A stretch of DNA of 64,000 bases from Nitrospinota bacterium (GTDB lineage Bacteria > Nitrospinota > Nitrospinia > Nitrospinales > JACRGP01). The stretch's first letter is position 1, and each line of letters begins with the position of its first letter. Shown piece after piece: positions 13,709 through 38,798 of the stretch. The stretch is taken from NCBI GenBank assembly GCA_016207065.1, contig JACQQK010000178.1:5740-69739 (forward strand), given 5' to 3'. Below the pieces are notes generated by a model. That model searched no databases. It saw only the letters and a program-made list of their open reading frames with translations, and was not told where the DNA came from. The position numbers were made by a program, and so were the translations under genes.

Positions 13709-13798
13709 CCCCCTTTAACAAAGGGGGCAAGGGGGATTTCATGCCTTGACGCCAGCAAAACCCTCAAATCCCCCCATCCCCCCTTTTTCAAAGGGGGG
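13709..13798. repeat. G/C-tract palindromic intergenic repeat cluster
   Basis: cccccttt-aaca-aaaggggg (13709-13727), gggggattt (13731-13739) paired with aaatccccc (13766-13775), and cccccc-tttttcaaa-gggggg (13778-13798). Confidence 0.8.
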
Positions 13799-13831
13799 CA
13801 TATGCTCCATGGATCCAGCGTCGCGCCGACG

Positions 13832-14926
13832 TCAGCTTTTCCAGGCCAGTTCGAACGTCGCGTCGACTTTTTCCTCTTTGGCTTGATTGATGCTCAGGCG
13901 GGCCGCCACCTGTCCCGCCAGGCTCCGGTAGGCTTCGCTGGCCGGGGAATCCGGATGGCTCAACAGGATGGGGACGCCGTTGTCGCCGCCTTCCACCACC
14001 TGGTTGAGGATCGGCACTTCTCCCAGGAACGGGACTTTGAACTGGTCGGCGAGGGTCTTACCGCCGCCGTGTTTGAAGATGTAATGTTTCTTACTGCATC
14101 CGTCGCAAATGAAATAGCTCATGTTCTCGACCACGCCCAGGATGGGCACTTTCACCTGCTCGAACATGCGCACGCCCTTCTCCGCGTCGATCAGGCTGAC
14201 TTCCTGCGGCGTGGTGACGATCACCCCGCCGGACAGCGGCGCCCGCTGGGTGAGGGTCAACTGCACGTCGCCCGTGCCCGGAGGCAGGTCGATGACCAGG
14301 TAGTCCAGTTCGCCCCATTCCACGTTGCCCAGAAATTGCTGGATGATCCCGCCCAGCATGGGTCCGCGCAACATCAAGGGTTGTCCTTCCTTGGTGAGGA
14401 ACCCGGCGGAGACCACCTTCATCCCGTGTTTTTCATGCGGGTAAAACTTGTTGTTGGCGCCGCCCATGGGAGGCGTGATGGGGATGCCGAGCATCTTGGG
14501 GATGCTGGGGCCGTAAATATCGGCGTCCATCAGCCCCACTTTCGCGCCGGTCAGACCCAGGGCAACGGCCAGATTGGCGCTGACGGTGGATTTGCCCACG
14601 CCGCCCTTGCCGCTGGCGACGGCAACGATGTTCTTGACCCCCGTGAGGATGGGTTGACTGTGTTGGGTGGGCCGGACGTTGGAGGTCATGTTCACCTCGA
14701 CGCGCCGGATGCCCTCGATGGCCTTCACCTTGCTCTGACACTCGTTGCGCAATTGCTCCTTCACCGGGCAGGCCGGGGTGGTGAGTTCCACGTCGAATGT
14801 TACGTTGCCGTCGTCGATCTTTATATTTTTCACAAACCCCAGGCTCACGATGTTCTTGTGCAAGTCGGGGTCCATCACGGTTTTTAACGTTTCCATTACT
14901 TTCGCTTCCAACTCTTGGTTAGCCAT
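13832..14926 (-). CDS. apbC: Fe-S cluster carrier ATPase ApbC/Mrp with N-terminal DUF59/MIP18 domain
   Basis: 'TLKTVMDPDLHKNIVSLGFV' (DUF59), 'ASGKGGVGKSTVSANLA', 'DADIYGPS', 'DYLVIDLPPGTGD' and 'CDGC'. Confidence 0.9.
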   Translation of the reverse strand: MANQELEAKVMETLKTVMDPDLHKNIVSLGFVKNIKIDDGNVTFDVELTTPACPVKEQLRNECQSKVKAIEGIRRVEVNMTSNVRPTQHSQPILTGVKNIVAVASGKGGVGKSTVSANLAVALGLTGAKVGLMDADIYGPSIPKMLGIPITPPMGGANNKFYPHEKHGMKVVSAGFLTKEGQPLMLRGPMLGGIIQQFLGNVEWGELDYLVIDLPPGTGDVQLTLTQRAPLSGGVIVTTPQEVSLIDAEKGVRMFEQVKVPILGVVENMSYFICDGCSKKHYIFKHGGGKTLADQFKVPFLGEVPILNQVVEGGDNGVPILLSHPDSPASEAYRSLAGQVAARLSINQAKEEKVDATFELAWKS

Positions 14927-15132
14927 AAAGCTCTCCCGGTTCTAATCGATCGGTTCAACAAACTCAATATTGGATGGCCGCAAAATCAAAAAGATTTAAA
15001 ACGATCCACTCAGCGGCGCTGTCCATAATCGTAATATTCCGGCTCTAAATCGTTTAGTCTGGAATTGCGTGACGAAAAGAAATAGCATTGCTCCCCCTTG
15101 CCGGGCTTGCCACGGCGTCGCCTTGGTGAGCC

Positions 15133-15187
15133 GGGGGGATTCCGCGAATAAAAGTTTCAAATCCCCCTACCCCCCTTGCAAGGGGGG
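15133..15187. repeat. G/C-tract palindromic intergenic repeat (same family and orientation as 13731-13798)
   Basis: ggggggatt (15133-15141), aaatccccc (15159-15167), and cccccctt-gc-aagggggg (15170-15187). Confidence 0.8.
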
Positions 15188-15609
15188 ATAAAGCAAAGGC
15201 GCTTTTTGTTTCCGGATTTTTTCCATTTTAAATCGTCCGGCTGGCGCCGATAAATCAAATTCCAAACCGGTTAAAATTAATCTATATATGGTATACAATT
15301 GATTTGTATATACCATATGAGGGTCTTTTGACTTTACAAAATGAAAAGCCTATGTTAAACAGCGCAATGTGGCGAGTCAGCGGCTGGCACGGCCCAACGC
15401 TTTTTCTCCCGCGCGCCAAAACGATTCGAGGCGCGTTTGATCGCGCCTCAAAACCATATATAAAGTTTAATGCTCCGCGCGTCAAGTCAATCGTTCAAAT
15501 TTACTCGACGGATTCAGTTTAAACCCTTTTTCATTCGCTTCCAACCTCCGTATCGTCTGGCGTAGCCGCCGGACAATACGGAAACAATCTCCAGAAAAGA
15601 AAATTCGAA

Positions 15610-17907
15610 ATGGCCAGGGAAAAAGCTTCCGATATTTGTCATGAACTGGAAAACCGTTTTCTCACCTACGCGCTGTCCACCATCGTTTCGCGCTCCCTGC
15701 CGGACGTGCGGGACGGCCTGAAACCGATCCACCGCCGGATCTTGTACGCCATGCACAGCCTGGGGCTTACCGCTGTCGCGAAGTACGTCAAATCGGCGAA
15801 GATCATCGGCGAGGTGCTCGGCAAATACCATCCGCACGGCGACGCGTCCACCTACGAGTCGATGGCCCGCATGGCGCAGGATTTTTCCATGCGCTACCCG
15901 CTGGTGGACGGCAAGGGGAACTTCGGCTCGGTCGACGGCGACGCGCCGGCGGCCTACCGCTACACCGAGGGCAAGACCACCTCCATTACCGCCTACCTGG
16001 TCAACGACCTCAACAAGGACACGGTGGACTTCCGCGCCAATTACGACAATACCCTGGAGGAGCCGGTCGTGTTCCCCGCGCGCCTGCCGAACCTGCTGGT
16101 CAACGGTTCGTCGGGCATCGCCGTGGGCATGGCGTGCTCCTTCCCCAGCCACAACCTGTCGGAAACGATCGCCGCGCTCGTCTCCATGATCGACGACCCG
16201 GAGCCGTCGGTCGCCAAACTACTCAAGCACATCAAAGGGCCGGACTTCCCGACGGGCGGGATCATCCTCAACTCCAAGGCGGAGTTGCGCAAAGCCTATG
16301 AAGAGGGGTCCGGGACGGTCAAAATCCGCGGGGAATGGGCGCTCGAGGAACTTCCCCGCGGCCGGTCGCAGATCGTGATCGCCTCCATTCCTTACGGGAT
16401 CAACAAGTCCAAGCTGATCGAGAAGATCGCCGAGATCATCATCGCCAAAAAACTTCCGCCGTTAACGGACGTGCGCGACGAAAGCGACGAGAACGTCCGC
16501 GTCGTCCTGGAAATCAAGACGGGCGCGGAACCGGAAAAGGTCATGGCCTACCTGTTCAAACATTCCGAGTTGGAAAGCGCCTTCCAGTTGAATTTCACCT
16601 GTCTCAAACCCAACGGCGAGCCCGCGCGGCTTTCCCTGCTGGAAATTTGCAGGTATTTCCTCGATTTCCGCAAGGAGACCGTCGTCCGCAAGCTGAACTA
16701 CGAGCTGTCCGTCATCCTCAAGCGGTTGCATATCCTCGAGGGATTCGCCGCCATCTTCTCCGCTCTGGACAAGGCGCTGAAGCTGATACGGACCTCCAAG
16801 TCCCGGCAGGAGGCGCACGGCAAACTCAGGGACGAGTTCGGCCTGGACGACGAGCAGACCTCCGCCATCCTGGAAATCCCCCTCTACCGGCTGGTGTCGA
16901 TGGAGATCGGCAAGATCATCGACGAAATGAACGAAAAGAACAAAGAGAAAAAAAGGATCCAGGAGATCCTGAAATCGCCGGCCAGGGTCTGGCAGGTCGT
17001 CAAGGAGGAACTTCTGGAGATCGACAAGAGCCACGGCGACAAGCGCCTGACCAAGATCAAGACCGTCGAGGCGCTGGAATACAACGCGGAGGACTTCATC
17101 GAGCACGAGGACGTGGTCGTCGTCCTCAGCAAAAACGGCTGGCTGAGGAAGTTCAAGACCGTCGCCGACCCCGCCGCGCTGAAGTTCAAGGAAAACGACG
17201 CCCTTTTGGGCATGGTCAAGGCCAACACCCGCGATTGCGTCGCGATCTTCACCTCGTTCGGGATGACGTACGTCACGCGGGCGCTCAACCTGCCCTACAC
17301 GCGCGGCGGGTTCGGCGACCCGGTGCAAAGCCTGTTCAAATTCGGCGACGGGGAAAAAGTGATCGCCATCTTCTCCCTGGCGCCGGGGGAAATCCTCGCC
17401 GCCTTGAAAGGGATCCCCGTCCCGCCCGCGGAGACCGGGACGGCGCAAAAAACCCTCGACTTCGGCGCGGAGGAGGAATTGCGCGACGCGGAGTTTCTGG
17501 CCGCCAGCGACACCGCTTACGGCTTCCGCTTCCCCCTGGCGAACCTCGGCGAAACCACGCGCTCCGGGAAAAAGATCATGTCGCTAAAAGACAACCAGCG
17601 CATGGCGGGCATCTCGCTGGTCGCGGGCGACCACGTTTTTCTGGCCTCCAGTAACGGCAAGGGCCTGCTCGTCCCACTCGACCAGATCGCCAAACTGACC
17701 GGCGCCGGGATGGGCGCGCGCCTGATGAAGCTGGCCGACGAGGCCACCCTCGCGGGGTTCAAATGCGTCGGGCTCAAGGACAAGGCCGCGCTGGCGTTCG
17801 ATGACGGAAGCCAGAAGGAGATTTCCATGAAGGACATCCCCGTCTACCAGAGAGGGAGCCAGGGCGTCATCGTCTCCAAGCGGAAAACCATCGTCAACGT
17901 ACTTTGA
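15610..17907 (+). CDS. Type IIA topoisomerase subunit A (GyrA/ParC family; size and absence of an obvious GyrA box favour ParC-like)
   Basis: 'LPDVRDGLKPIHRRILYAM', 'KYHPHGDASTYESMARMAQDFSMRYPLVDGKGNFGS' and 'AAYRYTE' (catalytic Tyr). 765 aa. Confidence 0.85.
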   Translation: MAREKASDICHELENRFLTYALSTIVSRSLPDVRDGLKPIHRRILYAMHSLGLTAVAKYVKSAKIIGEVLGKYHPHGDASTYESMARMAQDFSMRYPLVDGKGNFGSVDGDAPAAYRYTEGKTTSITAYLVNDLNKDTVDFRANYDNTLEEPVVFPARLPNLLVNGSSGIAVGMACSFPSHNLSETIAALVSMIDDPEPSVAKLLKHIKGPDFPTGGIILNSKAELRKAYEEGSGTVKIRGEWALEELPRGRSQIVIASIPYGINKSKLIEKIAEIIIAKKLPPLTDVRDESDENVRVVLEIKTGAEPEKVMAYLFKHSELESAFQLNFTCLKPNGEPARLSLLEICRYFLDFRKETVVRKLNYELSVILKRLHILEGFAAIFSALDKALKLIRTSKSRQEAHGKLRDEFGLDDEQTSAILEIPLYRLVSMEIGKIIDEMNEKNKEKKRIQEILKSPARVWQVVKEELLEIDKSHGDKRLTKIKTVEALEYNAEDFIEHEDVVVVLSKNGWLRKFKTVADPAALKFKENDALLGMVKANTRDCVAIFTSFGMTYVTRALNLPYTRGGFGDPVQSLFKFGDGEKVIAIFSLAPGEILAALKGIPVPPAETGTAQKTLDFGAEEELRDAEFLAASDTAYGFRFPLANLGETTRSGKKIMSLKDNQRMAGISLVAGDHVFLASSNGKGLLVPLDQIAKLTGAGMGARLMKLADEATLAGFKCVGLKDKAALAFDDGSQKEISMKDIPVYQRGSQGVIVSKRKTIVNVL

Positions 17908-17955
17908 CCTAGAGGGCATAACAAAATGAACCGATGGTCTGGACACACAAATGAC

Positions 17956-18183
17956 TCCCCTCCCTTGAGGGAGGGGGCTGGGGGAGGGGGCTGGGGGAGG
18001 GTGACCGGCGTGAACGCTGGTCCAACGCCGCCTCAGGCTGACGCTACGGGATGTAGCTCCCCCTTGCAAAGGGGGCCGGGAGGATTCGCATTTCGGCGAC
18101 CGCGTCAGCGTCATCGCCGCATTGCCTCCGGGCGCTTGCCCGGCTTTTCACCCCCACCCGACCTCCCCCATCAAGGGGGAGGG
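17956..18183. repeat. Cluster of G/C-tract palindromes and a short tandem repeat
   Basis: cccctccc-ttga-gggagggg (17956-17977), ggggctgggggag x2 (about 17973-17998), ccccctt-gca-aaggggg (18057-18075), and cctccccc-atca-agggggagg (18162-18183). Confidence 0.75.
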
Positions 18184-18225
18184 GATTATATGAAATTTCA
18201 TTTTATTACACGCTCTTAGGGAACC

Positions 18226-20118
18226 ATGGGAACGTATCAAGCGAAAGATATTCAATTACTGGAAGGGCTGGAACCAGTCCGGCGGCGTCCGGGAATGTAC
18301 ATCGGCTCGACCTCCACAACGGGACTGCACCACCTCGTGTGGGAAATCCTCGACAACTCGGTGGACGAAGCCCTCAACGGCCACTGCGACACCATCGAGA
18401 TCGAGATCGAGGCGGACAACGCGATCGCGATCAAGGACAACGGGCGCGGAGTCCCGGTGGACGAGTTCCGCAACAGCGGGAAAAGCGCCATGGAAATCCT
18501 GTTCACCACCCTGCACTCCGGCGGGAAGTTTGGCGACGACAATTACAAAGTCTCCGGCGGCCTGCACGGCGTGGGCATGGCGGTGGTGTGCGCCCTGTCC
18601 GAAACGCTGGTGGCCACGTCGCGGCGCGACGGGTTCGAGTGGACCCAGACCTACTCGCGCGGCAAGGCCGTCGGCAAAATCAACAAGGGCAAGCCGTCGC
18701 GCCATTACGGCACCACCGTCTACTTTAAACCCGACTCGCAGATTTTTCCCAAGGTCGAGTTGAATGTCAAATGGATCCTCGAACAGGCCGAAGCCAAGGC
18801 CTTCCTGCACAAGGGGCTCAAGATCGTCGTCCGGGAACGCGGTAGCGAGCACGTGTTCCAATACCCCGGCGGCATCAAGGACTACCTGAAGAAGATCGCG
18901 GCCGGCAAGCAGGTCCTCATGGAGGAGCCGGTGTACGTCGAGAAGGACGACCAGCGCCTGAAGTTGGAAGCCGCCTTCCTGTGGACCGCCGGGACGGACA
19001 CCGTCATCCACTCCTACGCCAACGCCATCAAGACCGCGGACGGCGGGACGCACGAAAACGGGTTCCGCAACGGCGTCACGCGGGCCATCCGCGCCTATAT
19101 CGAGCGCCGGAACCTGCTCTCCAAGGGGATCCCCGGCGTCACCAGCGACGATGTCAAGGAAGGGCTCGTGGCCATCGTCAGCGTCTACCTGTCGGGCGAG
19201 GTGGAATTCCAGGGGCAGACCAAGGGACGGCTGAACTCGGACATCACGTCGCAGGTGGAGTCGGTCGTCAAGCACTCGCTGGAGAACTTCCTGCACGAGC
19301 GCCAGACCGTCGGCGACCTCGTCGCCAACCGCGTGATCCTGTCGGCGCAGGCGCGCATCGCGTCACGGCAGGCGAAGGAGGCGGTGCACCGCAAGACCAA
19401 CATATCGCACCGGTTGAACCTGCCCGGCAAGCTGTCCGACTGCGCCTCGACCGACCGGGAGGAATCCGAGCTGTTCATCTGCGAAGGCGACTCTGCCGGA
19501 GGGTCCAGCAAGCAGGCCCGCGACCGCAAAACCCAGGCCATCCTGCCCATCCGCGGCAAAATCCTGAACGTCGAGACCGCGACCATGGACAAGATCCTGG
19601 CCAATACCGAGATCCAGAACATCATCTCCGCCACCGGGACCGGCATCCATCCCAAGTTCGACCATGACAAACTGCGGTACGGCAAGATCATCATCATGAC
19701 CGACGCCGACGTGGACGGCGCGCACATCTGCGCCCTGCTCCTGACGTTCTTCTACCGCTACATGCCGGAGCTCATCGAGAAGGGGAATTTATACATCGCC
19801 CAGCCGCCGCTCTACCGGATCGACTCCGGCAAGAACTGCTACTACGCCATCGACGACAAGGAAAAAGACTCCATACTGCAAAAACTGGACAACGCCAAAT
19901 ACGACATCGGCCGGTTCAAGGGACTGGGAGAGATGCCGCCGTCCGACCTCAAGGAGACCACCATGGACAAACGCTCGCGCTCGTTGATCCGCGTGGAAGT
20001 CGCCAGCCGGGAAAACGCCGACAAGACATTCGACCACCTCATGGGCAAGGACGCGCAAGCCCGCTTCCGCTTCATCCGCGAACGCGCCCCCCTCTTCCAG
20101 GAAGCGCTGGACGTGTAG
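18226..20118 (+). CDS. Type IIA topoisomerase subunit B (GyrB/ParE family)
   Basis: 'GLEPVRRRPGMYIGST', 'HHLVWEILDNSVDEA', 'LHGVG', 'ELFICEGDSAGGS' and 'IIIMTDADVDGAHI' (Toprim). 630 aa, stop TAG. Confidence 0.9.
   Translation: MGTYQAKDIQLLEGLEPVRRRPGMYIGSTSTTGLHHLVWEILDNSVDEALNGHCDTIEIEIEADNAIAIKDNGRGVPVDEFRNSGKSAMEILFTTLHSGGKFGDDNYKVSGGLHGVGMAVVCALSETLVATSRRDGFEWTQTYSRGKAVGKINKGKPSRHYGTTVYFKPDSQIFPKVELNVKWILEQAEAKAFLHKGLKIVVRERGSEHVFQYPGGIKDYLKKIAAGKQVLMEEPVYVEKDDQRLKLEAAFLWTAGTDTVIHSYANAIKTADGGTHENGFRNGVTRAIRAYIERRNLLSKGIPGVTSDDVKEGLVAIVSVYLSGEVEFQGQTKGRLNSDITSQVESVVKHSLENFLHERQTVGDLVANRVILSAQARIASRQAKEAVHRKTNISHRLNLPGKLSDCASTDREESELFICEGDSAGGSSKQARDRKTQAILPIRGKILNVETATMDKILANTEIQNIISATGTGIHPKFDHDKLRYGKIIIMTDADVDGAHICALLLTFFYRYMPELIEKGNLYIAQPPLYRIDSGKNCYYAIDDKEKDSILQKLDNAKYDIGRFKGLGEMPPSDLKETTMDKRSRSLIRVEVASRENADKTFDHLMGKDAQARFRFIRERAPLFQEALDV
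20076..20117. repeat. 42-bp direct repeat, copy 1 (3' end of the topoisomerase B gene)
   Basis: ccgcgaacgcgcccccctcttccaggaagcgctggacgtgta is identical at 20846-20887. The next base differs, giving TAG here and TAA there. Confidence 0.95.
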
Positions 20119-20157
20119 CCGTAGTAATGCGCCCTTAAACTTTACGAAACTGAGTTT

Positions 20158-20478
20158 ATGACCTTTAACGAAACGATCGATCTTGCCGTCCGGCGCATTG
20201 TAGAGGTTGCTCGTCCGGCGAAGGTCATCCTGTTTGGCTCCCGCGCGCGGGGCGACGAGGACAAAGGCTCCGATCTGGATTTAATGGTCATCGAAAACAG
20301 GGAACCCGATACCTACGAAGAAACGATCCGCCTTCGCAAGGCGGTAGGAAGCGTTGGCGTGGGCGTGGATATTCTGGTCTATTCGCAGGCCGAGTTCGAG
20401 CGGCGTAGCCAGGTGCCCGGAACGGTTCTTTACTGGGCAAGGAAGGAAGGCAAGGTCTTGTATGAAGCCGAACGTTGA
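20158..20478 (+). CDS. Minimal nucleotidyltransferase (MNT) domain protein, HEPN-MNT toxin-antitoxin-type
   Basis: 'ILFGSRARGDEDKGSDLDLMVI' (GSxxRG...DxD). Confidence 0.8.
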   Translation: MTFNETIDLAVRRIVEVARPAKVILFGSRARGDEDKGSDLDLMVIENREPDTYEETIRLRKAVGSVGVGVDILVYSQAEFERRSQVPGTVLYWARKEGKVLYEAER

Positions 20479-20844
20479 GGAGGCGCTACGGTCCTTACGC
20501 CTGGCAGACCGGGACATCAAGGCTTTCGACATCTTGATGAATTCCCCGGAAGCGCATTCGTCGGTGGTGTGTTTTCATGCCCAGCAAGCTGTCGAGAAGT
20601 CTTTAAAGGCCGTTTTATACCTGAACCTCATCGAATTCGAACGCACGCACGACCTCGTAAAACTCGCGGAACTGCTCCGGAATAACGGCTTCAGCCGCCG
20701 GTTTCGGACGATGAGTTCCACAAGCTTGCCCCCTTTGCCGTGACCTTCCGCTACGACGACAAGGAAACAGAGTCCCTGACAGGAGAAGAGGCCGGGCAGA
20801 TAATGATGGCCATCCGCCGTTGGGCGGGAAAGTTGCTTGAATGA
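20462..20844 (+). pseudogene. HEPN domain protein (partner of MNT), frameshifted near 20694-20697
   Basis: 'CFHAQQAVEKSLKAVL...ERTHDLVKLAELL' in one frame, and 'DDEFHKLAPFAVTFRYDDKE...AIRRWAGKLLE*' in the next. One added C (agccgccgg becoming agcccgccgg) joins them. The start overlaps the MNT 3' end. Confidence 0.7.
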
Positions 20845-20845
20845 C

Positions 20846-20887
20846 CCGCGAACGCGCCCCCCTCTTCCAGGAAGCGCTGGACGTGTA
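20846..20887. repeat. 42-bp direct repeat, copy 2
   Basis: Starts 2 nt after the HEPN stop (20842-20844). See 20076-20117. Confidence 0.95.
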
Positions 20888-20899
20888 AGAGGTCTGAAA

Positions 20900-21379
20900 A
20901 TGCTCCCGGAGCAAACGCCGATAACCGGTCGGGAAGACATAAAGGGCGCGCCCCCTCCCCTTCGGGCCCTGATCGAATTTTACGACGCCTTCAACAACAG
21001 GGACATGGCCAAGATGTCGAACAATTGGGCCCGGACCGCTGAAATCTCGATGGACAATCCTGTGGGCGGAATCAAGCGGGGGTGGGAAGAAATCGGGGCC
21101 GTTTACGAACTGATCTTCAATGGCCCCGCCCGCGTCTATGTCGAATTTTACGATTATACCCTGCACGAGACGGACCGGATGTTTTACGCGGTGGGAAGAG
21201 AGCGGGGACGTTTTTCCATAGGCGAAACCGCCATCGATCTGGCCATTCGCACCACCCGGATTTACAAATTAATCGACGGACATTGGCGGCAAGTCCATCA
21301 CCATGGCTCGATCGACGATCCGGAGGCGCTGGCGCGTTATCAGTCGGCTGTCAGTAAGAGGACGCGGCCAAGCGTATAA
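20900..21379 (+). CDS. SnoaL/NTF2-like (DUF4440-like) small protein
   Basis: 'LIEFYDAFNNRDMAKMSNNW...YVEFYDYTLHETDRMFYAVGRERG...LIDGHWRQVHHHGS' fits the NTF2-fold pattern. The likely start is ATG 20900 rather than the ORF-track 20837, which lies in the repeat. Confidence 0.55.
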   Translation: MLPEQTPITGREDIKGAPPPLRALIEFYDAFNNRDMAKMSNNWARTAEISMDNPVGGIKRGWEEIGAVYELIFNGPARVYVEFYDYTLHETDRMFYAVGRERGRFSIGETAIDLAIRTTRIYKLIDGHWRQVHHHGSIDDPEALARYQSAVSKRTRPSV

Positions 21380-21387
21380 AAAGGAAC

Positions 21388-21693
21388 TTGGGTATGGCGG
21401 ATGATTGGAAGATCAAACGGGTCGCCTTCACCCGGCATGCACTGAACCAGATATTTACCCGCTCCATCGGAATCGACGATGTCAAGGCGGTCATTTCCAG
21501 CCATGAAATCCTCGCGGAATATCCGGATGATTTTCCCTACCCCAGCCGCTTGCTACTCGGTTTTGTAAAAGGAAGACCGTTGCATGTGGTATTAGGCTAT
21601 AATTCGAAAGAATCAGCCGCTTATGTGGTCACGGTTTACGAACCCAACCCGGTTCTCTGGGAACCCGGTTTTCGCAGGAGGAGAAAAACATGA
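21388..21693 (+). CDS. DUF4258-family putative toxin
   Basis: 'FTRHALNQIFTRSIGIDDVKAVISSHEILAEYPDD...RPLHVVLGYN...VVTVYEPNP' fits the DUF4258 pattern (recollection). Overlaps the next gene by 4 nt (ATGA). Confidence 0.6.
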   Translation: MGMADDWKIKRVAFTRHALNQIFTRSIGIDDVKAVISSHEILAEYPDDFPYPSRLLLGFVKGRPLHVVLGYNSKESAAYVVTVYEPNPVLWEPGFRRRRKT

Positions 21694-21914
21694 TGTGCCT
21701 TTTTTGCCATCACGGCGAAACCCATGAAGGCGAGGTCACTGTTACCCTCGAACGAAAGACCAGCGCGGTCATCGTACGCGGCGTGCCCGCCGACGTGTGC
21801 GAGAATTGCGGCGAATATTACCTCAGCGAGGAAGTCTCGCGAAAAATTCTGGATCTGGCCGAAACCGCCGTCCAGCGCGGCGTCGAGGTGGAAATCCTGC
21901 GTTATGCCGCGTGA
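21690..21914 (+). CDS. YgiT-type zinc-finger (MqsA N-terminal-like) putative antitoxin
   Basis: 'CLFCHHGETHEGEVTVTLERKTSAVIVRGVPADVCENCGEYYLSEEV', with two CxxC pairs. Confidence 0.65.
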   Translation: MMCLFCHHGETHEGEVTVTLERKTSAVIVRGVPADVCENCGEYYLSEEVSRKILDLAETAVQRGVEVEILRYAA

Positions 21915-22226
21915 AATCCCAAAGCTCGACAAATCCGCCCAAGCCAATCTGATGTAGCCGGAGATACGCCGCGTCGTCAAGATCAAGAAACCGACCGTGC
22001 GGGCGACCTACGAACTCCAGGAAATCGGCCTCCCCGACCTCGAGACCGTCCTGAAAGCGTTCGTGGCATGACTCGACTTTCTCCAAGAGAGAGGATGCGG
22101 TCAAGCCTATGAAAAAGAGAGATTCGAACTCTGAAGAACATCGTATAATACTCTTCGTCCGCATGGTCCACAGGAAAATTTGACGCCAAAAGAATTAGCA
22201 GAAAATCGGTCAAAGGAGCGCCAGGT

Positions 22227-23375
22227 ATGCATAAAGTGAAGAAGATCAAAATCGAGGGATTCAGACGGTTGCATGACATCGAGATCGAAATGCGACCGTT
22301 GATGGTCATGATCGGCGCCAACGGCGTGGGCAAAACATCTTTTTTGGACGCCATGTCCCTCCTTTCCGCTTCCGCAGAGGGGACGATGAACCGCAAATTG
22401 AACGATATGGGCGGCATCGCTGAGGTTCTCACCCGCGGGCGCGCGGGCAATCTCGCCTTGGAAACCGAAATCATGGAGAAATCCAGCAAACAACCTCTCA
22501 AATACAGTCTCCATATCGAACCCAAGGGTGTAACGTATAATATTTCACCGGAGGTTTTATCCCAAGAAAGAGGGCGTCAGAGACCTTTCAAATACATCGA
22601 ATCGAATTCCGATAATATCTTCTATTTTAGTCCCGAAAAAAACAAACTCGTCCGGCCTACATGGGAGCACAACCCGTTCGAGTCGACGCTGTCCCAAGTC
22701 TCTAACATGTTCCCGGAAGCCGAGGAATTGCGGCGGGTCCTCAGTTCCGTCACACAGTATCATGTGCTCGACGTGAGCCAGCGCGCTCCGGTAAAACTCC
22801 CCCAACAGATGAAACCCGCCGATCTGCCCGGCGAGAACGGCGAGGATATGGTCCCGTTCCTTTACTCCCTTCGGGAAAAAGACCCTGATCGGTACGAAGC
22901 AATAGAGGATACTCTGAAATCGGCATTCCCAGGCTTTGAATCCCTCAACTTTCCACCGGTGGCGGCTGGCATGCTGTCCATGACCTGGAAAGAAAAAAAC
23001 TTCAAGAACCCGATTTACATAAACCAGCTTTCCGAGGGAACTCTCCGCTTTCTTTGGTTGATCTCTCTGTTACAGAGCCCGGCGCTTTCCCCCGTGACCA
23101 TGATCGACGAACCCGAAGTCAGCCTGCATCCTGAAATGCTGAGCTTCCTCGCCGATCTGATGCGGGAAACCTCCGAAAGAACCCAAATCATCGTCGCCAC
23201 TCATTCCGACAGGCTTGTCCGCTTTCTTGACCCCAAGGAAGTGGTCGTCATGGATATCGGCGATGACGGCTTTGCGTCGGCAAAGTGGGCCGATTCGCTG
23301 GATTTGGAACAATGGTTCAAAGAGTATACCCTCGACGAGGCTTGGCGAATGGGGCGCATGGGAGGACGGTCGTGA
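22227..23375 (+). CDS. ABC/SMC-like AAA ATPase (AAA_15/AAA_21-type)
   Basis: 'IGANGVGKTSFLDA' (Walker A), 'LSEGTLRFLWL' (signature-like), 'TMIDEPEVSLHP' (Walker B) and 'IVATHS' (H-loop). SD aaggag upstream. Confidence 0.8.
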   Translation: MHKVKKIKIEGFRRLHDIEIEMRPLMVMIGANGVGKTSFLDAMSLLSASAEGTMNRKLNDMGGIAEVLTRGRAGNLALETEIMEKSSKQPLKYSLHIEPKGVTYNISPEVLSQERGRQRPFKYIESNSDNIFYFSPEKNKLVRPTWEHNPFESTLSQVSNMFPEAEELRRVLSSVTQYHVLDVSQRAPVKLPQQMKPADLPGENGEDMVPFLYSLREKDPDRYEAIEDTLKSAFPGFESLNFPPVAAGMLSMTWKEKNFKNPIYINQLSEGTLRFLWLISLLQSPALSPVTMIDEPEVSLHPEMLSFLADLMRETSERTQIIVATHSDRLVRFLDPKEVVVMDIGDDGFASAKWADSLDLEQWFKEYTLDEAWRMGRMGGRS

Positions 23376-23989
23376 AAATAGCCTTGATTGTCGAAGGCAA
23401 GACCGAGAAAGCCTTCATGCCGCATCTCCGCAAGTACCTGGAAAGGCATCTCGCTGGTTGCATGCCTTCTCTTGATCCCCTTCCATACGGTGGCCGCATT
23501 CCTACCGGGGACCAATTAAAGCGTATTGTCAGTAATCTCTTGGAGAATGGAAGAAATCCGGCGGATCATGTGATCGCATTGACGGATGTTTATACAGGTC
23601 CCCAATCGCCCGATTTTAAAGACGCGCAAGATGCAAAGACTAAAATGCGCCAGTGGGTCGGCAATGAACCGAGGTTCCATCCCTATGCCGCTCAACATGA
23701 GTTCGAGGCATGGCTTTTACCTTATTGGTCTTGCATCCAAAAATTAGCGGGCCGTAACAAAGCGGCCCCAAGCAGTACCCCTGAAACCGTAAACCACCAC
23801 AATCCGCCCTCGCGCCGTATCAAAGAAATTTTTCGTATCGGCCAACATCGCAACCACTATATTAAGCCGCGCGACGCCGACCGGATCTTGCGGGACAACG
23901 ATCTCGGAGTCGCCGTTTCCCAATGTCCGGAATTGAAGGCGCTTATCAATACGATTTTATCCGTGTGCGGATCAAAGACGATTCCATGA
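23372..23989 (+). CDS. DUF4276-like protein (Toprim/OLD-nuclease-like N-terminus), partner of the ATPase
   Basis: GTG 23372 overlaps the ATPase stop (GTGA). Carries the 'KIALIVEGKTEKAF' EGxxE motif and 'VIALTDVY'. The family assignment is from memory, not a search. Confidence 0.55.
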   Translation: MKIALIVEGKTEKAFMPHLRKYLERHLAGCMPSLDPLPYGGRIPTGDQLKRIVSNLLENGRNPADHVIALTDVYTGPQSPDFKDAQDAKTKMRQWVGNEPRFHPYAAQHEFEAWLLPYWSCIQKLAGRNKAAPSSTPETVNHHNPPSRRIKEIFRIGQHRNHYIKPRDADRILRDNDLGVAVSQCPELKALINTILSVCGSKTIP

Positions 23990-24035
23990 TGGGGTTGCGC
24001 TTTGTCCCCGCGCAAAAAACCCGTCATTCTCCCTC

Positions 24036-25010
24036 ATGCAACCCAAAAACTCCCCGGCCAAGCCCAGTCTGCTGATCGCCTTCGGCGGCAACGCGTTGGA
24101 GACGCCGGAGAGTTCCAACCGGCAACGGGACGAGTTTTTCGCCGCGCGGCGGAGCATACGGGAAGTGGCCGGCCTGATCAAGAACGGGTACGGGAAAATC
24201 GTCCTCACCCACGGCAACGGCCCGCAGGTGGGCCGGATCTTCCTGCAACAGGAACTCACCAAGAACGAATTCCCGCGCCAGGTCACGCTCGACGTGTGCG
24301 TGGCCGACAGCCAGGGCCGGATCGGCTACATCCTGCAAAACGTGTTCGACAGCGTGTGCGCCGAGCTGGGCGTCAACAAGAAATGCTACGCGGTGATCAC
24401 GCAGGCGGTGGTGGACCCCGGCGACCCGGCCTTCCAGAACCCCGATAAACCGATCGGCGTGTTCTATTCCGCCGAGGACGCGGAACGCCTCGCCCGGGAA
24501 CGCGGCTGGGTATTGCGCGAGGACGCGGGGCGCGGATACCGCCGCATGGTCCCCTCCCCTAAGCCGCTGGAGATCGTCGAGAAGAACCTTTTCCAGAACC
24601 TGCTGGACCAGGGGTTCATCGTCATCGGCGCGGGCGGCGGCGGCATCCCGGTCTTCCGGGACGCGTCGGGGGGCTTGTCGCACGGCGTGGAGGCGGTCAT
24701 CGACAAGGACCGCGCCAGCGCTCTTCTGGCCGGCGAAATCGGCATCGACTGTTTTGTCATGCTGACGGCGGTCGATTACGCCTACCTCGATTACAACTCG
24801 CCCCGGCAATCGCCGATCAAATCCGCCACGGCGGAGGAAATGGAAACCTACATGGAGTTGGGACATTTCCTGGAGGGGAGCATGAAACCCAAGGTGGAGT
24901 CGGCGATCCAGTTCGTCCGGAGCGGAGGCAAAAGGGCGATCATCGCCAACTTGAACGACCTGTTACCAGCCCTGGAAGGAAAAACCGGCACGCAAATCGT
25001 CCCCGATTGA
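24036..25010 (+). CDS. arcC: Carbamate kinase
   Basis: 'LLIAFGGNAL', 'LTHGNGPQVG' and 'GGGGIPV' motifs. 324 aa. Confidence 0.85.
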   Translation: MQPKNSPAKPSLLIAFGGNALETPESSNRQRDEFFAARRSIREVAGLIKNGYGKIVLTHGNGPQVGRIFLQQELTKNEFPRQVTLDVCVADSQGRIGYILQNVFDSVCAELGVNKKCYAVITQAVVDPGDPAFQNPDKPIGVFYSAEDAERLARERGWVLREDAGRGYRRMVPSPKPLEIVEKNLFQNLLDQGFIVIGAGGGGIPVFRDASGGLSHGVEAVIDKDRASALLAGEIGIDCFVMLTAVDYAYLDYNSPRQSPIKSATAEEMETYMELGHFLEGSMKPKVESAIQFVRSGGKRAIIANLNDLLPALEGKTGTQIVPD

Positions 25011-25137
25011 CCCACTCGCCGTGGGGGGGCAATTTGCTGAAACTCTCCCTGCGCTCAAGGCGTCACCGAGGGCAATCCCAGCCCCCTTTGCAAGAAGAGC
25101 TTTGCACAACTCCCATTTCGCCGGGCAACCTTTTATT

Positions 25138-25265
25138 CGTCATCGCGAGCCGTCGCAGACGGGCGTGGCGATCCAGGTTTCTGGAGCGCAAAGCCTCCCG
25201 CTTTGCGCGCTACGCGGGGACGCGTAGCGCTCCATATGGATTGCTTCGCTCCGCTCGCAATGACG
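25138..25265. repeat. MITE-like nested-hairpin intergenic element
   Basis: Terminal inverted repeats cgtcatcgcgagc (25138-25150) and gctcgcaatgacg (25253-25265), 12 of 13 matching. Inner hairpins are gcgcaaagc/gctttgcgc (25186-25208) and gctacgcg/cgcgtagc (25209-25228). Translates to the junk-ORF strings 'VIASRRR' and 'DCFAPLAMT'. Confidence 0.6.
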
Positions 25266-25503
25266 GTGTGGAAGATAGTTATGCAAAGCTCTCCTTTACA
25301 TGGGGGTCGCCCCACTCCAAGTTCTTGCTTGCCGGTTTTGGATTTTGGAGGCGTTTTATCTTCAAACTCTGGTTGAACCGGAACGTGCACTCGCCACAAG
25401 CCCGCCCAAGCCGTGAAGAGCGTCCGGCGGTTTTAGGAGCGTTCACAGCAACTCATTGAAAAACAAGCGATTTTTTAGCGTCGCAAACGGAAAATAAAAT
25501 GAG

Positions 25504-25533
25504 TTGACAGTAAAATAATGCAACCCTTATACT
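25504..25533 (+). promoter_or_regulatory. Sigma70-type promoter candidate for nuoE-G-D
   Basis: TTGACA (25504-25509), 18 nt, TATACT (25528-25533), about 125 nt upstream of nuoE. Bracketed by a 9-bp inverted repeat, aaacggaaa (25485-25493) and tttccgttt (25539-25547). Confidence 0.45.
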
Positions 25534-25656
25534 GCGCATTTCCGTTTGGCTGTTTATATGCCTTGGAAAAGACGGGTTTTCGTTTTCAAACGGTTACCGC
25601 TTATCTTAAACTGGCGGTAATACTAAAAACCAACCCTTGAGCAAACCTCAAAACTT

Positions 25657-28866: not shown

Positions 28867-30057
28867 ATGGCCGACTTAAAAGAGAACCTGCATACCGAAC
28901 ACATGGTCCTGAACATGGGCCCGTCCCACCCCGCCACCCACGGCACGGTGAAGTTCCTTCTCACCCTCGACGGGGAAACCGTGGTGGACTGCGTCACCGA
29001 GGTGGGCTACCTCCACCGAGGCTTCGAAAAGATGTGCGAGAGCGTCACCTGGACCAACGTCTTCCCCTACACGGACCGGTTGAACTACTGTTCGGCGATC
29101 ATGAACAACATCGGCTACGCCCTGGCGGTCGAAAAACTGCTGGGCATCGAATGCACCGAGCGCTGTAAATACATCCGCGTCGTCACCAACGAGCTGGCCC
29201 GCATTTCCGACCACTACACGAACGTCGCCGCCGCCGCCCTAGAACTGGGGGCGCTGACCGCGTTCATCTATTTCGTGGAAGCCCGCGAAATCGTCTGGGA
29301 CCTGCTCGAGAAAGTCTGCGGGGCGCGGTTGACCTCCAACTACGTCCGGATCGGCGGGTTGATGTGCGACCTGCCGCCGGGCTTCGACGGCGACCTGAAA
29401 GCCGTCTATCCCAAGCTGGACGCGCTATATGACGACGTGGACAAGCTCCTCACCAAGAACCGCATTTTCATCGACCGCATGCGGAACACCGGGGCCATTT
29501 CCCGCGAGGACGCGATTTCCTACGGCTTTACCGGCCCCTGCCTGCGGGCGTGCGGCGTGGATTACGACGTACGCAAGGCCCATCCGTACCTGTGTTACGA
29601 CCGCATGGACTTCGACATCCCCATCGGGACCACCGGCGACAACTTCGACCGTTACCTCGTCCGCATGGAGGAAATCAAGCAAAGCATGAAGATCGTCAAG
29701 CAAGCCATGAGGGACATGCCCGAGGGCCCGATCAACGTCAACAACCCCTACCTGCGCCAACCCTCCAAACAGGACGTGTACACCCGGATGGAGGAAATGA
29801 TCGCCCATTTCAAAATGGTGATCGAGGGATTGAAGCCCCCGATCGGCGAGGTTTACTTCCCCGTGGAAGCCGCGAACGGCGAACTGGGATTTTACCTGGT
29901 GAGCGACGGCGGCGGGAAACCCTACAAGTGCCGGGTGCGGCCGCCCTGCTTCACCATGACCTCCGCCATGAGCCACATCATCAAGGGCCAGATGCTGGCC
30001 GACCTCATCCCCACCTTCGACATGCTCAACATGATCGGCGGGGAGTGCGACCGGTAA
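28867..30057 (+). CDS. nuoD: NADH-quinone oxidoreductase subunit D (49-kDa)
   Basis: 'MVLNMGPSHPATHGTVKF...VGYLHRGFEKMCE...' ending in 'GGECDR'. Confidence 0.9.
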   Translation: MADLKENLHTEHMVLNMGPSHPATHGTVKFLLTLDGETVVDCVTEVGYLHRGFEKMCESVTWTNVFPYTDRLNYCSAIMNNIGYALAVEKLLGIECTERCKYIRVVTNELARISDHYTNVAAAALELGALTAFIYFVEAREIVWDLLEKVCGARLTSNYVRIGGLMCDLPPGFDGDLKAVYPKLDALYDDVDKLLTKNRIFIDRMRNTGAISREDAISYGFTGPCLRACGVDYDVRKAHPYLCYDRMDFDIPIGTTGDNFDRYLVRMEEIKQSMKIVKQAMRDMPEGPINVNNPYLRQPSKQDVYTRMEEMIAHFKMVIEGLKPPIGEVYFPVEAANGELGFYLVSDGGGKPYKCRVRPPCFTMTSAMSHIIKGQMLADLIPTFDMLNMIGGECDR

Positions 30058-30253
30058 ACTAATCCCGCTCCGGGAAAACTCTCCCGGACCGCCCAACCAT
30101 CTCGCGCCAAGCTCACGTATCCGCCAATTTCAAGAGAGGATCAAACGTTTGAATCATCGACCGGGAAAATTCCTTGGCCTCAAACACAAGATGAGTTATT
30201 CTTAAAAAAACTTGCCTGGCGTAAGGACTTGCGGGTTGATTCATCGTATTCTT

Positions 30254-30634
30254 ATGAATCTGAAAACAAATTTCTCGTTATCCATTTTGTCCGTCATTTT
30301 CGTCGGATTGTCCGCCATTGAAGCCTTGGCGACGGAAACCGTTGTAATCGTAAACTCCACCTTCTCGCCGGAGTATATCGAAATAGATTCCTGCAACAGC
30401 ATCGATTTTATCAACCTGGATCCTGTAGATCACAGGTTGATCTATCCTACGGAAAAAAACCCCAGGCAAACCGTCTACCTCTTGGGATGGGGAATGATAG
30501 GAATGCCAAACCCGCATGTTGAAAACCTGATATTTGATCCCGGCACTTATGTTTTCAAATGCCTCCCGCATCCTTGGATGAATTCGGTTAAAGTCCATGT
30601 CGTCGAGAGCATGGGAAACTGTCCTACCCCCTGA
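30254..30634 (+). CDS. Secreted cupredoxin, amicyanin-like type-1 copper site
   Basis: A signal-like N-terminus, His in 'DPVDH', and 'CLPHPWM' (C-x-P-H-P-x-M as in amicyanin 'CTPHPFM'). A/T-rich gene. Confidence 0.6.
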   Translation: MNLKTNFSLSILSVIFVGLSAIEALATETVVIVNSTFSPEYIEIDSCNSIDFINLDPVDHRLIYPTEKNPRQTVYLLGWGMIGMPNPHVENLIFDPGTYVFKCLPHPWMNSVKVHVVESMGNCPTP

Positions 30635-30749
30635 CCGCCGCTCGTTTCCCTGCGTTTGTGTTTTTCGCGACTTGTTTTTTTGCCCGCCGAGAGTTCTGGC
30701 CCCGATATTGCGCGAGTCGAAAATCGTAGCATTTCAAATGGGTCATCCT

Positions 30750-30826
30750 TCGACAGGCCCCGGATGACAAGGGCTATCATTGTCATGGTGAGCTTGTCGA
30801 ACCATGATCGCGCTCTCATTGAGAGC
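30750..30826. repeat. Intergenic palindromic repeat element (junk-ORF string 'SWFDKLTMT' type)
   Basis: atgacaa (30764-30770) paired with ttgtcat (30780-30786), tcgacag/cttgtcga arms, and ctctc-att-gagag (30813-30825). Confidence 0.45.
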
Positions 30827-30872
30827 CCGATCGATCAAACGCCACCTATTTAGCGCTCCCGGTAATAATTCG

Positions 30873-31934
30873 TCAAAAGGCAACGATTATCGCAACATGA
30901 TAAATACCCAGAGTAATAAAAAGCGCCGAAATGGTCATATGTAACGAGAGCCATTGCCTTAAGATACATTGTAAAGCGCAGTGAACGTCGATCTGCTGTT
31001 TTTCAAGATACATTTCCCGTATTCGGGCCAAAACCAGCTTCTCCCGTTCGCTTAAAAACATCTCCACCTTTTCAAATTCATGCAACTTCTCGATCACGCC
31101 CGCCGATGCGCTGAAAAAATAGGTCAACTGCGGAATCGGGCCTTGAAAAAACGGAAAAACCTCTTGATCGCAGAAGTAGGACAAAGCCTTGGAAACTTCA
31201 TGCTTCCGCCCCAACTCGTCCAATGCCGCGCGGATCTTGTCGCGCAACCGCTCGACAACTCCCGGTATTTTTTCATAAACGACCTCAAACTCCAGATCGG
31301 CAAGTTTGATTGGGACTATCTTTTGCAAATAAAGTCCCACCACGCCAAGCACGATAAAAGCAAAAAACACGTAAAACAATATGTTGGAAAAGAAGCCGAC
31401 GGGAAACTGAAAATTGACATGGAACAGCAGAACAAAGAAGCAAGCGAACCCGGAATAAATGTGAAAGATCCTCCAGCTTTTCGCGCTTCGAAGCGCGACA
31501 AAGGGCGACAGATTTTTCTTGATCCTGAAACAAAGCCCCAAAAAGGTTAAAAGTAAAATCAATATGCCCGAGACCAGTTTTTCCGTTTCAAAGGAATATC
31601 TTCTATTGATAATCAGATAAATGGAAAATCCCAGCATGAACAAGGCAAATAAAACCATGCCATAATAATGGCCGGGCCGGGCCGGGCCCAAACTGGAATG
31701 GGCCAGCAAGATCAAAAATAAAGCGCAGATGGAAATAAAGTGTCCTTTGCCGACCATCACGATTTCGGACTGATCCAGTAAAATCATGGAAAGTAATCCC
31801 GCCAAAAAACAAAATATCCAACGCCCGGCTTTTCCAGGATCCTGGAAAAAAGAAGAACCGGAGGCAACAAGGCCCGTTACCCAGGAATCGGTCCCATTGA
31901 AGGCTTTTCGGCCAGATAAACCAGTTGCGTTCAT
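30873..31934 (-). CDS. Polytopic membrane protein with two His-x13-His helices (putative di-haem b, ferric-reductase/NOX-TM-like)
   Basis: About 7 hydrophobic segments. 'RIFHIYSGFACFFVLLFHV' and 'LHMTISALFITLGIYHV' each place two His 14 positions apart. A soluble insert of about 130 aa precedes the last helix. Confidence 0.55.
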   Translation of the reverse strand: MNATGLSGRKAFNGTDSWVTGLVASGSSFFQDPGKAGRWIFCFLAGLLSMILLDQSEIVMVGKGHFISICALFLILLAHSSLGPARPGHYYGMVLFALFMLGFSIYLIINRRYSFETEKLVSGILILLLTFLGLCFRIKKNLSPFVALRSAKSWRIFHIYSGFACFFVLLFHVNFQFPVGFFSNILFYVFFAFIVLGVVGLYLQKIVPIKLADLEFEVVYEKIPGVVERLRDKIRAALDELGRKHEVSKALSYFCDQEVFPFFQGPIPQLTYFFSASAGVIEKLHEFEKVEMFLSEREKLVLARIREMYLEKQQIDVHCALQCILRQWLSLHMTISALFITLGIYHVAIIVAF

Positions 31935-31978
31935 GACAGGGAGCTCCCGAAGTTCCGTTATTCAGATACGAAATCGCG

Positions 31979-34576: not shown

Positions 34577-34580
34577 TTTC

Positions 34581-35924: not shown

Positions 35925-36046
35925 TCGCCGAACCTCATTACCGGAAAAAACAAGCGCAGACGGCTTTGCGCCCGAGTCAAGACCTTAAAGAAACATATGG
36001 GTTTCAAAGCGTTTTTGCGCGCGGGGAAAAACGATCGACAACAGGG

Positions 36047-37051
36047 TCACTTCTTTTTCCGTATATATTCGTTTTCGCCGGGTATCGGAAAAGCCGATAT
36101 CTTACCGGCTCCGATCGGGGATTTATCGAGATCGCCGACATAAGAATTGGCGAGCTTCTTTATTTCCTCGACAACAGCTTTGGCCGTAGCCGGATCCGGC
36201 GTTACTTTCTTGCCGGCATCGATGATTTTTCTAAGATTGTCCGATGGAATGCTTTTTTCGACTACCTCCAGATTTTTCAATGCGGCAACAAGCATCGCAT
36301 GATTTTTGGAGGTAAATTCTCCGCTACCGGAAGCCTCGGATATGCGCATGGCGGACGTTTGCGCTTGGAATACCTCTCCGGTAATCCAGATTTTTCCCAG
36401 TTTTTCCATCAGCTTCGCGTCCAGATTGCCTTCCTCTTTCTCCTTTTTGCTCCAAACCCAGTGCTTGAAATCGCCCTGGCTGTACTTTATCAGGTCAAAC
36501 TTGTCGCCGGGCCGATGACCCGCCTTGAAATATTCCTCCTTGGCTCCGCGGTGACAGGCAAAACAATCCTTTGCCCAGGCATACAGGTTCCTGGTGTTCC
36601 GCATGCCATTTTTCACCGCCTCCTCGACTTTACCCTTTTTGTCATGCAGTTCCACCCAGTCCTCGGCGGGGTTGTGACACGTCTCGCAAATAATCCCGAA
36701 AAGCCCCTTTTCCTCGTCGGGCACTTTCGGGTATTTGGAGTCGACAAGCGTCGTGTGGCATTGAGCGCATTTTTTATCGTCAAAATGATCCTTGACGTTC
36801 ATTTTTTGGGCAATCTTCTTGCCCTTTTCCTCAAAATCCTTGTTAAAAAAAGACTCGTGAGGATGAAACAGCATTTGATCGAAAATACTTTTGTGGCAGT
36901 TGGAATCGGAGCACTGTTTGGATCCAATCACCTTGTTTACCGCAAAAGCGGATCGCGCAATCGACATCGAGGAAACAAGGAGGGCAAATAGCGTCAGGGC
37001 AATTAAGGTTTTTTGTCTCATTAGAATTTTCACGATAAATGTTGAGGGCAT
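36047..37051 (-). CDS. Secreted multihaem c-type cytochrome (3 CxxCH + 1 CX4CH)
   Basis: Signal peptide 'MRQKTLIALTLFALLVSSMSIARSAFA', so the true start may be ATG 37021. Motifs CAQCH, CETCH and CFACH, plus 'CSDSNCH'. Confidence 0.8.
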   Translation of the reverse strand: MPSTFIVKILMRQKTLIALTLFALLVSSMSIARSAFAVNKVIGSKQCSDSNCHKSIFDQMLFHPHESFFNKDFEEKGKKIAQKMNVKDHFDDKKCAQCHTTLVDSKYPKVPDEEKGLFGIICETCHNPAEDWVELHDKKGKVEEAVKNGMRNTRNLYAWAKDCFACHRGAKEEYFKAGHRPGDKFDLIKYSQGDFKHWVWSKKEKEEGNLDAKLMEKLGKIWITGEVFQAQTSAMRISEASGSGEFTSKNHAMLVAALKNLEVVEKSIPSDNLRKIIDAGKKVTPDPATAKAVVEEIKKLANSYVGDLDKSPIGAGKISAFPIPGENEYIRKKK

Positions 37052-37166: not shown

Positions 37167-37190
37167 TTGAGTTAAAAAGTTCGAGATGTC

Positions 37191-38771: not shown

Positions 38772-38798
38772 TTTGACCTTGCCCTATCGCTGAAAGGG

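Follow-up and report, generated by a model that had tools for sequence, protein, structure and literature searches.

Payne et al. introduced Hma-embedded candidate 01 (HEC-01; bioRxiv 10.1101/2024.01.29.577857) for a gene pair inside Hma that encodes an ATP-binding cassette (ABC) ATPase and a TOPRIM protein, and the type is catalogued in PADLOC-DB v2. In cold-seep genomes HEC-01 ranks among the top 12 system types, and a randomly chosen cold-seep HEC-01 protected Escherichia coli B against at least one of the phages T4, T5 and T7 (PMC12881386). In this study, we analyzed a two-gene pair, hereafter gene A and gene B, in a 64,000-nt stretch of contig JACQQK010000178.1 of a Nitrospinota bacterium (assembly GCA_016207065.1); this whole stretch is called the window. 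Judged by both hidden Markov model (HMM) matches, by adjacency and by co-orientation, the pair fits the definition of HEC-01, and it belongs to a distinct, already catalogued family that shares the logic of OLD, PARIS and Gabija. In our view the pair is probably a HEC-01-type module of two genes that arrived by horizontal transfer, in which an ATPase-controlled Toprim nuclease would act against invading genetic elements.

Gene A (22227..23375, + strand, as are all features of the pair) encodes a 382-aa protein of the HEC-01A family, an ABC-type ATPase of the AAA_21/AAA_15 group according to its open reading frame (ORF), Pfam and PADLOC. The HEC-01A profile of PADLOC-DB (PDLC04175) matched residues 2-381 of the 382 with an E-value of 8e-72 (profile positions 4-361 of 363), and the other PADLOC profiles that responded (AriA, mad3, AbiLi, NsnB, PtuA and GajA) gave much weaker matches. 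Pfam AAA_21 covered the full length (1.9e-38), and the N-terminal end also matched AAA_15 and SMC_N. The sequence reads as a Walker A motif, GANGVGKT (aa 30-37, 22314..22337), a signature-like ABC motif, LSEGT (aa 268-272, 23028..23042), a Walker B motif, VTMIDE, followed by the D-loop-like PEVSLHP (aa 290-302, 23094..23132), and an H-loop histidine, H326, within ATHS (23202..23204). An alignment of 38 homologues with 66-75% identity had invariant residues in all four: G30, N32, G35 and K36 in Walker A; L268, S269, E270 and G271 in the signature-like motif; D294 to S299, H301 and P302 in the Walker B region; and A324, T325, H326 and S327 around the H-loop. The predicted ATPase motifs are thus all intact and invariant among homologues. 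An AlphaFold2 (AF2) model of the protein (pLDDT 83.7) shows a compact ABC head that carries beta-rich as well as helical inserts and lacks a long coiled coil. Its best matches among Protein Data Bank (PDB) folds are PtuA of Septu and type I-A retrons (E ~1e-14, TM-score ~0.55), followed by SMC heads, in agreement with the sequence-level PDB matches of gene A, which were OLD, PtuA and GajA.

Gene B (23372..23989) encodes a DUF4276 protein of the HEC-01B family with a predicted OLD-like Toprim and helical domain, as assigned with Pfam, PADLOC, AF2 and Foldseek. Translated from the GTG at 23372 it has 205 aa and the N-terminus MKIALIVEGKTEKAF; an upstream in-frame GTG at 23285 would give 234 aa, and the shorter reading is supported, since MKIA marks the start of the homologues and of the Pfam match. 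DUF4276 was the only Pfam family found (7.2e-33, profile positions 1-191 of 192), and the HEC-01B profile (PDLC04188) matched over its full length (2.4e-17, residues 2-198). No NCBIfam model matched gene B and PHROGs gave nothing. The two genes are adjacent on the same strand and overlap by 4 nt (GTGA), with the GTG start of gene B at 23372-23374 and the TGA stop of gene A at 23373-23375. A GGAGG (23361-23365) precedes this overlap with a 6-nt spacer, so that the whole junction spans 23361..23375. The arrangement is best explained by one transcript from which both proteins would be made by translational coupling. A scan for promoters and terminators around the pair found nothing above chance, and Rfam returned no RNA match between 19.5 and 26 kb of the window.

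The last 13 residues of gene A (DEAWRMGRMGGRS, aa 370-382, 23334-23372) are predicted to be disordered (pLDDT <50) and are nonetheless nearly invariant in the 38 homologues, at W373, R374, G376, R377, G379 and R381. This tail overlaps the ribosome-binding site of gene B, with the Shine-Dalgarno sequence lying in its GG codons, so its conservation may have two sources, a protein interface and, in part, the Shine-Dalgarno sequence of gene B.

Searches of the PDB with gene B, both with the single sequence and with a profile, yielded no meaningful match, and its likeness to OLD was seen only through fold comparison. The AF2 model built from 40 sequences (pLDDT 80, pTM 0.80) has four strands alternating with helices and then a helical C-terminal half (strands at residues 2-7, 33-38, 66-72 and 102-107; helices at 10-27, 46-57 and 85-96). 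In the Toprim superfamily four such strands form a parallel sheet, with a conserved Glu following beta1 and a DxD following beta3; gene B has an invariant E8 and, of the DxD, D72 alone. Foldseek placed the C-terminal Toprim-plus-helical region of Burkholderia pseudomallei OLD (BpOLD; 6nk8) at the top of the PDB matches (E 4.4e-5, probability 1.00, TM-score 0.52), followed by Xanthomonas OLD (6njw, E 1.1e-3) and GajA chains of Gabija (E about 2e-2). An earlier note on this DNA, made from the letters alone, had read the locus as a 382-aa ATPase with Walker A, LSEGT, Walker B and H-loop motifs, whose stop overlaps the GTG start of a 205-aa, DUF4276-like protein with an N-terminal EGxxE motif. All of this agrees with our results.

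The catalytic machinery of BpOLD comprises E400, E404, D455-x-D457, T506, E508 and K562 (PMC6755086). We analyzed the corresponding positions of gene B in 40 close homologues and in 32 diverse DUF4276 proteins with 28-57% identity, the latter drawn from a search of 1.84 billion representatives that gave 466 clusters at E <= 1e-3. Invariant or near-invariant in the diverse set were E8, G9, T/S11, E12, D72, E112, W114, E138, N141, P146, Y163, K165 and C185. The EGKTE motif (23393..23407), which supplies the Toprim glutamate E8 and a second glutamate at +4, E12, is invariant at E8, G9, T11 and E12 in the close homologues and, with T or S at position 11, also in the diverse ones, and the E8/E12 spacing equals that of E400 and E404 in BpOLD. 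At the end of strand beta3, D72-V73-Y74 (23585..23593) keeps the first aspartate of the Toprim DxD motif and replaces the second: D72 is present in 32 of 32 sequences; position 74 has Y in 19 of the 32 and varies among the rest, with a conserved Asp never found there. E110-F111-E112 (23699..23707) opens the helix that follows beta4 and is the proposed counterpart of T506/E508, the metal B residues; E112 does not vary in the diverse set, and 30 of the 32 sequences have D or E at position 110. K165 (23864..23866), in the helical domain, is K in 31 of 32 and is the proposed counterpart of the catalytic K562. From motif order, spacing and position in the secondary structure, we propose the equivalences E8=E400, E12=E404, D72=D455, D/E110=T506, E112=E508 and K165=K562. 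This putative mapping is in line with Payne et al., who state that the metal site of BpOLD is also that of HEC-01B (bioRxiv 10.1101/2024.01.29.577857). DUF4276 is classed as a Toprim member, with Mad4 called a homologue, in the work on Menshen, whose DUF4276 domains are reported to keep the DxD motif (PMC12065111); the sampled gene B family differs in this respect.

Compared with the described systems, the pair is closest to HEC-01, which has the same two families in the same order and adjacency, full-length HMM matches and the OLD-like metal site described by Payne et al., a site that we also propose for gene B. The window copy differs in being solitary in a toxin-antitoxin-rich islet instead of embedded in Hma, and the HEC-01 representatives that have been tested are other sequences than this pair. 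The earlier note had placed the pair in the style of PARIS, AbiL and OLD. The shared logic of the OLD, PARIS and Gabija group stands, and membership does not: the pair falls outside PARIS, AbiL, MADS and the fused OLD and Gabija proteins. PARIS likewise consists of two genes, an AAA_15/21 ABC ATPase (AriA) and a small separate Toprim effector (AriB), and this likeness offers a plausible sensor-and-released-nuclease logic for the window pair. However, AriB is a DUF4435 protein, and no AriB model matched gene B even at E = 1. The AriA models matched gene A at 3.3e-35 and 7e-26, far more weakly than HEC-01A, and the better of them behaves like a generic AAA_21 model; the 50 best structural matches listed for each of the two proteins contain no AriA or AriB chain. 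For AbiL, AbiLi matched gene A partially (9.6e-23) and neither AbiLii nor RloB matched gene B. Class 1 (P2 Old) and class 2 (BpOLD, GajA) OLD proteins have in common with the pair an ABC-type ATPase and the E..E, D, E, K pattern, and gene B matches no PDB structure better than the C-terminal region of BpOLD. They carry ATPase and Toprim on one polypeptide, whereas the window has two separate ORFs, and gene B lacks the second aspartate of DxD; unlike Gabija, the pair has no UvrD-like partner such as GajB.

Mad3 and Mad4 of MADS combine an AAA_15/21-type ABC ATPase with a DUF4276 Toprim protein, as in the window (PMC11464382; PMC12065111). The PADLOC mad3 profile matched gene A over its full length (1.7e-26), but the NCBIfam MAD3 model (NF047739) scored 89.8 bits against a cut-off of 420, below what a Mad3 equivalog requires, and mad4 matched gene B only partially (0.0075). 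None of the other six MADS genes was found near the window pair, whose neighbours are toxin-antitoxin, SnoaL-like, carbamate kinase and topoisomerase genes. In Menshen (NsnABC), some NsnC proteins bring a DUF4276 Toprim effector that acts together with an ABC ATPase (PMC12065111), and the NsnB model matched gene A at 3.2e-22; no NsnA or NsnC core gene adjoins the window pair, and the DUF4276 of Menshen is reported with the DxD motif that the window clade lacks. In structure, gene A comes closest to PtuA, which occurs in Septu and in type I-A retrons, and PDB and NCBIfam matches show a similarity in sequence as well. PtuA is much longer, with about 550 aa against the 382 aa of gene A, and its partner is the HNH nuclease PtuB instead of a Toprim protein.

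We also asked how firmly the two genes stay together. In 25 loci retrieved from GTDB species representatives via gene B homologues, a gene A homologue lay directly upstream of the gene B homologue and ended where it begins in all 25, and an ATGA, GTGA or TTGA stop/start overlap was kept in about 20 of them. From locus to locus, the identity of the A homologue to its window counterpart rises and falls with that of the B homologue (r = 0.88). Proteins identical to both window proteins are present in a Nitrospinota metagenome-assembled genome (MAG), and for each protein there are thousands of homologues at about 70% identity, spanning Nitrospinota, Desulfobacterota, Zixibacteria, Latescibacterota, Nitrospirota, Acidobacteriota, Chloroflexota, Omnitrophota and others. 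In another Nitrospinota genome the pair sits at an unrelated site. The pair moves as a unit between phyla; its horizontal acquisition is supported by the identity of about 70% across phyla, the differing sites and a G+C content at third codon positions (GC3) that is low against the flanking genes. Carriage by phages or satellites, as in PARIS, was considered and dropped, with gene B unmatched in viral contigs, phages and plasmids. In five of the MAG loci (L013, L016, L019, L023 and L024, our numbering) a homologue of A or B spans more than one reading frame, and these are either decaying copies or MAG assembly errors.

A small mobile unit of two genes that sits among housekeeping genes at differing sites could also be a selfish, toxin-antitoxin-like addiction cassette, in which a toxic nuclease B is held by A and the pair is kept through post-segregational killing instead of host protection. 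Toxin-antitoxin pairs are indeed its immediate neighbours in three contexts, namely the window, L030 (PIN) and L038 (DUF433/DUF5615), and the frameshifted copies in the five MAG loci would fit such a cassette. We nevertheless think this explanation improbable: addiction modules are common on plasmids and phages, where the pair was not found, the ATPase by far exceeds a typical antitoxin in size and conservation, and the embedding in BREX described below points to immunity. In any case, a system can have a toxin-antitoxin-like architecture and still defend by abortive infection.

Genomic neighbourhoods were compared in ~27 contexts, comprising the window, six distinct metagenome contexts and 20 of the GTDB loci. 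In two of these (L039, 1-15240; L014, 643-15392) the pair is part of a complete type 1 BREX locus and separates pglX from pglZ, in the order brxA, brxB, brxC, pglX, A, B, pglZ, brxL, and the gene B homologue of L039 is 68% identical to the window protein. Type I restriction endonuclease (REase) subunit and PDC-M24 genes adjoin the pair in other loci. A role in defence is supported by the BREX embedding, by these neighbours, by the toxin-antitoxin neighbours and by the one protective HEC-01 (PMC12881386); this bears out the proposal of the earlier note that an ABC ATPase with a small OLD-type Toprim protein is a defence candidate, as do the HEC-01A/B matches and the OLD fold match. The pattern of contexts matches the published description of HEC candidates, which are embedded in other systems and not enriched in defence islands (bioRxiv 10.1101/2024.01.29.577857; PMC12881386). 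Directly upstream of gene A in three loci without BREX, there are fragments of ~27-51 aa resembling the C-terminus of PglX (L022, 1226-1360 and 5240-5392; L038, 5626-5739; L023, 8731-8811), suggesting that the cassette left a BREX context and took the 3' end of pglX along. L022 also has a stray gene A fragment at 6365-6535. A conserved upstream leader or a pglX remnant was searched for at the window pair and none was found.

These loci raise the alternative that the pair is an accessory cleavage or abortive arm of methylation-based systems such as BREX, Hma and MADS, and that the window copy is an orphan, hardly active or inactive by itself. The position between pglX and pglZ and the PglX remnants both fit this alternative, as does the history of HEC-01, which was discovered embedded in Hma and was inactive alone when tested (bioRxiv 10.1101/2024.01.29.577857); Mad3 and Mad4, too, belong to an eight-gene system, MADS (PMC12065111; PMC11464382), and at a distance of 10-15 kb the window has a type III restriction-modification system whose mod gene is split. 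Yet most copies are solitary and still have intact ORFs, catalytic residues and junction at ~70% identity across phyla, which argues for selection on an autonomous function. Moreover, the cold-seep HEC-01 protected E. coli when cloned alone (PMC12881386), and no BREX, Hma or MADS genes flank the window pair. We therefore regard an orphaned accessory arm as unlikely.

An ABC ATPase next to a Toprim protein is also reminiscent of RecF and RecR, and the pair could be an analogous housekeeping pair for DNA repair or recombination. Gene A matches SMC_N/RecF-type heads, gene B has the Toprim fold, RecO is a neighbour in L032, and topoisomerase genes occur in the window and in L016. These RecO and topoisomerase neighbours do not recur, however, and the patchy, horizontally transferred distribution, the atypical GC3 and the variable genomic position are at odds with a housekeeping role; the OLD-type catalytic residues are conserved, unlike in RecR, and the pair lies inside BREX in two loci. 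This explanation appears very improbable. As to the topoisomerase genes themselves, those of the window lie upstream of the islet (15610-20118) in A-then-B order and encode proteins of 765 and 630 aa, short and ParC/ParE-like in size. L016 has gyrB-like and gyrA-like genes (13783-18889) at most 8 kb from its pair in an arrangement unlike that of the window. A recurrent linkage to gyrase or topoisomerase was considered and judged a coincidence, L016 being the only one of the loci to share it.

For the HEC-01-type defence module that we favour, the following mechanism can be proposed. Gene A would dimerize or oligomerize via its ABC head and, by binding and hydrolysing ATP, would sense an invader-derived cue and control gene B, with which it would form a complex. 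Gene B would be a two-metal nuclease with the site E8, E12, D72, D/E110, E112 and K165 and, once licensed, would cut nucleic acid and thereby halt propagation of the phage or mobile element. Its substrate could be DNA, as for OLD and GajA, or tRNA or other RNA, as for AriB and RNase M5.

Several points weigh against such a defence module. In most of the ~27 contexts the pair stands alone among housekeeping genes and outside defence islands, flanked for example by an aminotransferase and a hydrogenase, by RecO and GlyRS, or by a reductase and a flavoprotein. Searches of IMG/VR, GenBank phages and PLSDB plasmids recovered no homologue, unlike for PARIS. Gene B lacks the second aspartate of DxD, so that its catalytic competence is not certain, and the proposed residue equivalences with OLD were drawn from motif order. 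For every member of the family, interaction between A and B and nuclease activity are predictions. The HEC-01 representative tested by Payne et al. in E. coli K-12 gave no protection against any phage tried (bioRxiv 10.1101/2024.01.29.577857), and the report of a protective HEC-01 includes neither mutants nor a mechanism and names the AAA_21 domain only (PMC12881386). The earlier note had left aside whether the DUF4276-type variant had been tested; it is already catalogued, as HEC-01, and has been tested experimentally with conflicting outcomes.

A more specific idea is that the conserved, mostly solitary D-x-Y clade is an autonomous sensor-effector with a target and trigger unlike those of OLD, Gabija and PARIS, possibly with RNA or tRNA as the target and with a nuclease released from an ATPase cage, and that the same cassette may also plug into BREX as a missing cleavage arm. 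If true, the plug-in role would explain both the embedding in BREX and the pglX remnants carried along. We offer this idea tentatively and hold it to be doubtful.

HEC-01 is among the most abundant candidate defence types in environmental genomes and has conflicting phenotypes. The window adds no new category and supplies a clean, intact and solitary Nitrospinota representative; its interest rests on the mechanism of an abundant family and not on unusual features of the locus. The comparative data provide experimental handles in the invariant E/E/D/E/K site without the second DxD Asp, the conserved junction, and the BREX embedding with its pglX remnants.

In the window, the pair is part of a low-GC3 islet (20119..24035, delimited by Pfam and GC3) between a gyrB-like gene and a carbamate-kinase-like gene. 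The islet has two toxin-antitoxin pairs beside gene A and gene B, MNT with HEPN (20158-20844) and DUF4258 with an MqsA-like gene (21388-21914). In order, the Pfam-assigned genes are MNT (20158-20478), a frameshifted HEPN gene (20462-20844), a SnoaL-like gene (20903-21379), DUF4258 (21388-21693) and the MqsA-like gene (21690-21914). The G+C content (GC) of the pair is 0.51-0.53; GC3 is 0.65 for gene A and 0.54 for gene B, within the range of 0.54-0.68 for the islet, compared with 0.88 for the gyrB-like and 0.86 for the carbamate-kinase-like flanking gene. The toxin-antitoxin-rich surroundings and the elevated A/T content that the earlier note had described are therefore both borne out. No tRNA gene was found in the window, and thus no tRNA-linked integration site, and the search for flanking repeats of the pair gave none that was convincing; the only strong repeat brackets MNT/HEPN. 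This perfect 42-nt direct repeat (20076-20117 and 20846-20887) has its copies 770 nt apart, exactly on either side of the MNT/HEPN cassette: the first copy is the 3' end of the gyrB-like gene including its stop, and the second immediately precedes the SnoaL-like gene, as would result from an insertion of the cassette that duplicated its target. The HEPN ORF at 20462-20743 covers profile positions 4-67 of 117, and the C-terminal part (RLQPPVSDDEFHKLAPFAVTFRYDD) is in another frame at 20686-20844, so this gene is either a pseudogene or an assembly error.

Elsewhere in the window, the type III restriction-modification system occupies 6753-12110 on the - strand. Its res gene (6753-10199) is an ORF of 1148 aa (REase_III, 6.7e-23), and its mod gene is split into 11364-12110, matching MTase_III profile positions 7-229 of 616, and 10136-11377, matching positions 287-613 of 616; a frameshift, phase variation or decay could account for the split. 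After the carbamate-kinase-like gene, ~640 nt (25010-25650) of lower GC (0.53) have no convincing ORF and contain a 20-nt inverted repeat (25092-25111/25277-25296, 90% complementary); Rfam found nothing in this stretch. A second low-GC region (30000-38800, GC 0.46-0.53) includes several ORFs of 340-525 aa without a Pfam match (30873-31934, 35966-36991 and 37191-38771) and encodes multihaem cytochromes and a cNMP-binding ferredoxin-reductase fusion.

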